A DNA stretch of 64,000 nt from Octopus vulgaris. Lineage: Eukaryota. Below, one piece after another: positions 22,546-26,898 of the stretch. The notes under the pieces are model-generated. The model was not told the DNA's origin, searched no databases, and was given only the letters and a program-made list of their open reading frames with translations. Positions within the stretch are counted from its first letter, which is position 1; each line of letters starts with the position of its first letter. Position numbers and translations under genes: made by a program. The stretch lies in assembly GCA_951406725.2 (NCBI GenBank), contig OX597836.1, positions 41,788,001-41,852,000 of the forward strand, in the 5' to 3' direction.

Positions 22546-22895
22546 TTAAATTCTATATCTCTTTTAGAGAATTATTATTGCTGTCGAACAGATTTTCGAA
22601 ATCAGCAAATGTATTTTGCTTGAAAATCTATATATGAATATCCTGCAGAGTGAGATTTCGTCGAGGAAGCGGAGGCCTACCACACGTTGACGATAGGCAA
22701 TACACCTTGAAACCATGGTCCGTGTGTGGTTTCCGCTTCATCGGGGAATTATCTCCCTTTGCAGGTTAAAGGACACCGTGACGGTGTCAAGCCTATCTGG
22801 CGACGTCGATGTTCGCCTGGGGCTAAATGCAACAGTAACACCCCCACCACCCTGCCCTGTCCCTAGCCATATTCAGGTGGCTTTAGTCCCTTATG

Positions 22896-26347: not shown

Positions 26348-26544
26348 GTCAAACGATGAAATGAGTGCTCAATACCGCATTGGGATTTGCCAAAATGGAG
26401 GGGAACGCCTTTCTCTGTGTGCTCGGTTTGAAAAATTGGTAGGACACGGATATTTTCCTACCTTTTTTAACAGCCTTAATTCACAAATAAAGAATATATG
26501 TGTGTGTTTGTCTCTGTGTGTATGTATATGTATGTATGTATATA

Positions 26545-26620
<76 letters not shown>

Positions 26621-26735
26621 GTAGTAGTACAGAAAAGAGGAATTTCGGTTGTCCCCACGTGGTGGATTGTAATGTATATAAGAAAAATAAGAACGGAAAA
26701 TACGCACACTTAAATGGTTATAGTATAATTTTTAA

Positions 26736-26772
26736 TGTATCGACCGGTTTCGCAATCGCTATTCATGATACA
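26736..26772 (-). ncRNA. Minimal hammerhead motif with A3-U8 core
   Basis: UGUAUC-AUGAAUA-GC(GAUU)GC-GAAA-CCGG-UC-GAUACA. Confidence 0.75.
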
Positions 26773-26863
26773 ATGTTTAATTTATATGAAAATATATTTC
26801 TTCTTAAGAAGAAAATGGATCCATGTTGTTTGTAATGAAATTTCTTATTTTTCTTATTTCACT

Positions 26864-26898
<35 letters not shown>

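Follow-up and report, generated by a model that had tools for sequence, protein, structure and literature searches.

Does a hammerhead motif in which the C3-G8 pair of the core is replaced by A3-U8 still represent a ribozyme, and, if so, whose? This question is raised by two short motifs on the minus strand of a 64-kb stretch of DNA (the window), which a sequence-only reading had described as a compensatory core found twice and had taken for selected variant ribozymes.

Engineered swaps of the 3:8 pair have reportedly been tested in some of the work of Lünse et al., Przybilski and Hammann 2007, Nelson and Uhlenbeck 2008a, b, Hammann 2012, Scott 2013, and Martick and Scott 2006. It is in the active fold alone that positions 3 and 8 pair (PMC3884650). 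When a type III hammerhead was scanned completely for double mutants, C3G/G8C was the one combination in this region that rescued, all others showing low activity (PMC9901934). The premise that compensatory 3:8 swaps can retain activity thus holds for G3-C8, while it cannot be regarded as established for A3-U8. A natural U3-A8 core occurs in the Penelope-like elements (PLEs) of Schistosoma, and for PLE minimal hammerheads the same study reports weak cleavage, seen in dimers but not in monomers (PMC4209133).

Two compact motifs in the window

The two motifs are:

26772 to 26736, minus strand: hammerhead copy 1, compact type I
52818 to 52788, minus strand: hammerhead copy 2, older AUGAUUA subfamily

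Copy 1 possesses a stem I of 6 bp, in which 26772-26767 pairs with 26741-26736. The core AUGAAUA begins at 26766 (A3 at 26766, U8 at 26761) and is followed by a stem II of 2 bp (G-C, C-G) with a 4-nt loop (stem II and loop at 26759-26752), the GAAA box at 26751-26748, the palindrome ACCGGU at 26748-26743 and a GUC triplet with C17 at 26742. The predicted cut lies between 26742 and 26741. Copy 2 shows a stem I of 3 bp, the core AUGAUUA from 52815 (A3 at 52815, U8 at 52810), a 2-bp stem II with a GAAA tetraloop and a predicted cut between 52791 and 52790. Its segment ACAGGU is non-palindromic, with the break at 52795. Related contigs carry the palindromic base at this position (depth 6582/6956, run X15), and the mismatch is therefore a mutation of copy 2. 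The sequence-only reading had placed both cores exactly, without stating the strand. It had likewise described the 2-bp stem II, GAAA, GUC site and (near-)palindromic stem III of each copy, as well as stem I sequences that differ and still pair; these descriptions hold, the palindrome being intact in copy 1 only.

Neither copy matches the consensus core CUGANGA of the PLE minimal hammerheads, both reading AUGANUA; U3-A8 is already allowed there as an exception to this consensus (PMC4209133). The expectation that CUGANGA-type pattern searches would miss them is borne out by Rfam: cmscan of 161-nt stretches around copy 1 and copy 2 returns no hammerhead family at E values up to 10. For the whole window, the 150 rows listed of 559 consist of microsatellite matches and one U6 copy (50189-50288, minus strand; 79.9 bits), a U6 snRNA copy with several changes that is probably a pseudogene. 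A descriptor for the shared architecture of the two copies, written after the motif had been seen, gives 2 matches in the window compared to 1 in 200 order-2 Markov simulations (mean 0.005).

Both motifs lie in truncated Penelope-like elements

The surroundings of the two motifs contain the following features:

26570..26896, minus strand: 3' end (pseudo-LTR region) of an A3-U8 PLE, 5'-truncated, ~330 bp (blastn)
26521..26618, no strand: (TA)n microsatellite at the element 3' end; another (TA)n tract lies at 26864-26898
52697..53387, minus strand: 5'-truncated PLE copy with endonuclease remnant and copy 2, ~80% identical to L007, L066 and L077
53091..53375, minus strand: GIY-YIG endonuclease remnant, 95 codons, 68% identical to L151

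Copies 1 and 2 are 5'-truncated copies of one Neptune-like PLE clade and not independent variants. The fragment around copy 1 has no ORF left and is 92-95% identical to L004, L014 and L019; in near-full-length copies the equivalent stretch sits behind the RT-EN frame. The endonuclease remnant ends ~275 nt upstream of copy 2, and the sequence surrounding copy 1 is related to that surrounding copy 2. The locus L151 has an open frame of 635 aa that matches RVT_1 (E 1e-6, narrowly missing the curated cut-off) and GIY-YIG (E 1.6e-6) and contains a C-X4-C-XX-C linker, and its motif lies 283 nt behind the frame. Its protein homologs are RT/GIY-YIG proteins, a few of them named from oysters. In A3-U8 elements the motif occupies a fixed place ~260-320 nt behind the RT/GIY-YIG frame. 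The identification as a hammerhead motif stands; the PLE context, which explains the motif, had been missed. The order of RT, C-X4-C-XX-C linker and C-terminal GIY-YIG in L151, together with the TA-repeat flanks, resembles Neptune clade PLEs, and a TA-repeat bias is reported for PLEs with a Zn-finger-like linker (PMC8557442). The label Neptune-like refers to this domain layout, our tree covering local and contig sequences.

In this genome, the A3-U8 family appears to have died out. At 12 near-full-length A3-U8 loci no upstream same-strand motif was found by the pattern used, and all 12 frames are broken; intact A3-U8 frames are likewise missing among the matches listed, of which the longest open frames reach 635, 585 and 554 aa. 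Copies 1 and 2 themselves are dead fragments, i.e. ordinary transposon debris. In the U3-based sister clade 811-aa frames are numerous, and same-strand motif pairs with a spacing of 4.0 kb occur at two (L362, L363) of the three intact loci compared. A decayed RT-endonuclease remnant of a more distant PLE family was also noticed in the window at 36121-37831 (plus strand), with no clear hammerhead found behind it.

The 3:8 pair across the genome

The descriptor search for any 3:8 pair, which the sequence-only reading had proposed, was run on the assembly (2.8 Gb) within the frame N3 UGA N N8 AGC, loop, GC GAAA CNNGUC. Hereby, 960 exact A3-U8 matches were obtained (reversed control 0), along with 1,347 matches in which both positions are changed; among 100 listed of the latter, 94 are U3-A8, 4 U3·G8 and 2 G3-A8. 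Position 3 alone is changed in 35 matches and position 8 alone in 45, i.e. in 80 single changes (reversed controls 0). With another base at position 17, 127 further A3-U8 matches appear, in most of which this base is U, as CpG decay would lead one to expect. The doubly changed matches increase by 908, and 100 listed of these comprise 84 U3-A8, 15 U3·G8 and 1 C3-G8.

To avoid selecting on the motif, a second set was picked by endonuclease protein similarity and comprises the top 30 matches for the A3-U8 family. The motif region is kept in 28 of these 30 loci, and all 28 have A3 and U8 (query locus included); one of the remaining loci has the motif deleted and the other has unrelated DNA in its place. 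A3-U8 is therefore the family state. The core bases U4, G5, A6, A9, G12, A13, A14, A15.1 and U16.1, which the genome-wide search patterns had fixed, are the majority base in all columns of this protein-picked set.

A3-U8 in other architectures gives 118 matches (control 36), most of the 100 listed being single mutants of the known A3-U8 family; a second A3-U8 origin was not seen among them. A looser GUC pattern with C or G at positions 3 and 8 yields 278 matches (control 39). No G3-C8 family was seen among the 100 listed of the C/G-at-3-and-8 pattern, which include 2 GUGAACA rows. The compact A3-U8 (960 + 127) and U3-based (1,347 + 908) motifs outnumber this looser pattern and thus mark a gap in annotation. 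A separate C3-G8 family with a 359-bp tandem unit is also present in the genome.

Beyond the assembly, a pattern scan of metagenomes returned at least 119 loci, of which 80 were examined. Only 4 of these 80 have minimal stems and none has a PLE frame; the pattern being too loose, these matches are regarded as chance. None of 30 candidate stretches in viral contigs proved to be a relative. Genome contigs included six PLE-bearing contigs in bacterial bins (L278-L283), which encode animal-type PLE proteins and are probably host DNA contamination of these bins; the motif is found in 4 of the 6 (3 C3-G8, 1 U3-A8).

Stem I covariation and the state of the copies

Covariation was evaluated on 39 sequences (32 distinct), namely 29 of the 30 A3-U8 loci (L020 being a duplicate of L019), copies 1 and 2 of the window, the loci L062 and L136, and six of the nine U3-A8 loci in which N1.1 is present. 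All six pairs of stem I change on both sides, and so does the 3:8 pair, in agreement with the family covariation that the sequence-only reading presupposed. The covariation score of 0.355, compared to 0.137 for shuffled (0/500) and at most 0.151 for slid alignments, is favoured toward pairing because the 21 of 30 U3-based loci without N1.1 were left out, and the counts are inflated by relatedness, the rows being related by descent. Within the A3-U8 lineage alone, at least five versions of stem I exist, with A·C intermediates in some copies. As judged from these alignments, the repeated restoration of stem I pairing points to selection on master elements. The type I topology with a paired stem I and a G10.1-C11.1 stem II is present throughout this picture: G10.1-C11.1 occurs in 32 of 32 rows, where the search pattern fixed it, and in 27 of 28 on each side in the protein-picked set, and the palindrome of copy 1 is that of the family majority.

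A chance look-alike or neutral relic, the pairings of which would be inherited noise, would fit a short motif with a stem II of only 2 bp, the missing Rfam match and covariation counts inflated by descent. We consider this explanation largely refuted and highly improbable, as it is contradicted by the fixed position behind PLE frames, by C3-G8 hammerheads at the equivalent place in the related elements L278, L279, L283 and L284, and by the at least five different sequence pairs of stem I.

The condition of the present copies bears on another explanation, the strongest version of the sequence-only reading, namely that both genomic copies are host-retained and currently active variant ribozymes. 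Substitutions that break the 3:8 pair are found at position 3 in 35 of 995 family matches (3.5%) and at position 8 in 38 of 998 (3.8%), the latter number being the 45 A3-V8 matches less 7 with a sister-family loop. These values are near the flank divergence of the protein-picked copies (85/3,075, 2.8%). Rare substitutions in 11 core columns of the same copies amount to 3/308 (1.0%). This is a weak hint of more conservation in the core columns than in the flanks, and together with the intact structure of copy 1 it speaks for retention by the host; the gap rests, however, on three events, the other motif columns also show 2.8%, and the family-wide breakage of positions 3 and 8, the broken palindrome of copy 2 and the location of the copies 26 kb apart with different stems speak against it. 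We therefore regard host-retained activity as very unlikely. Any selection, as claimed by the sequence-only reading, would have acted on past master elements and not on the genomic copies.

Origin of the A3-U8 pair

For the linker plus endonuclease region, a tree of 25 rows was calculated with a midpoint root; L007 and L065 were left out as too short. Hereby, the A3-U8 lineage comprises 13 rows, including copy 2, with a support of 90/97. Its sister is the U3-based clade (100/99), and the joint clade is supported by 100/99. The seven more distant rows consist of five with C3-G8, one with U3-A8 and one in which the motif was not found. Four rows of the A3-U8 clade are single mutants at position 3 or 8. 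On this tree, A3-U8 probably arose once, by one switch from U-A to A-U. The simplest reading of the order is C3-G8 to U3-A8, followed by the single switch to A3-U8, with U3·G8, seen in L374 and L378, as a possible bridge between C3-G8 and U3-A8. Given one probable origin, the thousands of copies represent one event. The sequence-only reading was thus correct about two motifs, while two selected events are not what they record: they come from two subfamilies within a single PLE clade, in which A3-U8 probably arose once.

Folding and proposed mechanism

The best monomer of copy 1 has a predicted energy of -5.8 kcal/mol (RNAfold) and pairs A3 with U16.1. A double-hammerhead dimer is predicted at -19.7 kcal/mol, compared to two monomers at -5.8 kcal/mol each, and the lowest-energy dimer at -22.2 kcal/mol is a non-catalytic one in which stem II is swapped. 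For copy 2 the catalytic dimer reaches -6.4 kcal/mol as against -14.2 kcal/mol for a misfold through a UCAUGA palindrome, which is possible because A3 creates this palindrome. According to these calculations, copy 1 could still fold as a dimer and copy 2 probably not.

Taking context, covariation and folding together, we favor, with a probability of roughly 0.58, that the A3-U8 motif of the master elements conferred a slow, dimer-dependent and possibly protein-assisted cleavage on the element RNA. Hereby, a single motif would not be able to close stem III, the loop having only 2 nt, and the A3-U16.1 pairing of the monomer would hold the motif off. Two motifs could pair via the ACCGGU palindrome and so build two cores, each of which would cut after GUC. 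The partner motifs might be those of a single tandem transcript, with its two pseudo-LTRs, or belong to separate transcripts. By analogy to the Anolis PLE, where the hammerhead cleaves only with the protein of the element (PMC11167929), the element's own protein may be needed for folding. As a result of the cut, the template for transposition would be trimmed or closed into a circle.

More tentatively, the A3-U8 motif with its 2-bp stem II (31-37 nt) may be a working dimeric or protein-assisted ribozyme that ranks among the smallest natural hammerheads, a proposal that we consider possible though not probable. If true, one PLE radiation would document how the catalytic 3:8 pair has moved in nature through C-G, U·G, U-A and A-U; the dimer or the protein of the element would buffer a core that a mutational scan of naked RNA calls low-activity; and counts based on CUGANGA would overlook the majority of compact PLE hammerheads in genomes of this kind.

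Sister subfamilies with altered cores

Among the U3-based sister loci (L031-L060), 21 of 30 are without N1.1, and stem I of these therefore needs an unpaired U before position 3. The young tandem L378 combines the missing N1.1 with U3·G8 and A17. A further young PLE family (L284-L314, e.g. G000:C1:27.84 Mb) has intact 775-aa frames, 4,271-bp tandems and a C3-G8 hammerhead. In L308 and L314 of this family U4 is changed to C; 3 of 30 loci keep U4 and 27 have no U4 match. A core change with reportedly reduced activity, U4C would appear to have expanded together with the most active family.

Observations of this kind bear on the possibility that we are dealing with a hammerhead-derived structure that is kept for folding, dimerisation or binding of the PLE protein, with little or no catalysis. 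With cleavage dispensable, the core would then be free to drift from any pair to any other (C-G, U·G, U-A, A-U). In young amplifying sisters one indeed finds U3·G8, U4C or a U that stands unpaired ahead of position 3. In vitro, PLE insertion was unaffected by hammerhead mutations, i.e. did not need hammerhead cleavage, and Anolis RNA-seq gave no reads ending at the cut site (PMC11167929); according to Craig et al., hammerheads may simply ride along in PLEs (PMC8557442). Such a structural role is at odds with a 3:8 pair that stays paired across clades (80 broken matches versus 960 A3-U8 and 1,347 doubly changed ones) and with G12, the GAAA box and a non-G at position 17 that are kept across clades ~58-63% identical in protein. 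Since only G3-C8 rescues in the mutational scan (PMC9901934) and young sisters spread with weakened cores, we nevertheless treat a mainly structural role as a real, if less probable, option. Should the motif of the master elements cleave, as we favor, a natural A3-U8 state would be added to the known C3-G8 and U3-A8 states, and the sisters with U3-A8, U3·G8, U4C and the unpaired U before position 3 would form a panel for the question whether PLE hammerheads must cut.

Relation to known hammerheads

The closest known relatives are the minimal hammerheads of metazoan PLEs (Cervera and De la Peña 2014, PMC4209133). The present motif shares with them the type I topology, the short palindromic helix III and G10.1-C11.1, the place behind the RT-EN frame, the occurrence mostly as single 5'-truncated copies plus nearby opposite-strand pairs, and a covaried 3:8 pair, there U3-A8 in the Cercyon PLEs of Schistosoma mansoni, which had been found by homology and not by a descriptor. 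Fig. S3 of that study, with its 56 representatives, contains 53 C3-G8, 2 U3-A8 and 1 U3·G8 cores and no A3-U8. Stem II has 2 bp here, compared to a shortest stem of 3 bp in this figure, and the extra base between positions 9 and 10.1, which is part of the consensus there and lacking in 2 of the 56, is absent here. By its sequence features, the A3-U8 motif thus belongs with the PLE minimal hammerheads, from which it departs in three respects: the 3:8 pair of the core, the shorter stem II and the lack of a base between 9 and 10.1.

Natural 3:8 covariation is also described by Perreault et al. 2011 (PMC3088659), who call a two-base-pair stem II common; the covariation reported there is U3-A8, not A3-U8. 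The hammerheads of Lünse, Weinberg and Breaker (RNA Biol 14:1499; PMC5785218) are similar in being PLE-linked, with a very short palindromic stem III and cleavage as a dimer (via PMC6765202). The hammerhead in the pseudo-LTR of the Anolis Poseidon PLE (PMC11167929) offers a model for protein-assisted cleavage, but has a canonical C3-G8 core and belongs to another PLE clade. Non-LTR retrozymes, i.e. tandem short repeats with a type I hammerhead each and no coding frame, are unlike the A3-U8 copies, which are dispersed or form inverted pairs and are tied to PLE frames. In the literature compared we found no natural A3-U8 core; Lünse et al. (PMC5785218), outside this comparison, may list A3-U8. 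PLE minimal hammerheads and natural U3-A8 cores are already known.

Other features of the window

Further hammerhead-like motifs were noticed in the window. A U3-A8 minimal motif of another design lies at 32228 (minus strand), with a 5-bp stem I, a 4-bp stem II and the palindrome ACAUGU. The motif at 22687 (plus strand) resembles the 359-bp tandem C3-G8 family, which is retrozyme-like (L081-L099), with a changed core. The one at 10501 (minus strand) looks like a C3-G8 minimal motif, and those at 50540 (minus strand) and 53600 (plus strand) are doubtful. The window also contains tandem arrays of a 174-190-bp SINE-like unit at 86-1189, 3940-5018, 5384-5743, 31008-31379 and 39690-40211, which presumably resembles the Nin-domain SINEs of molluscs.
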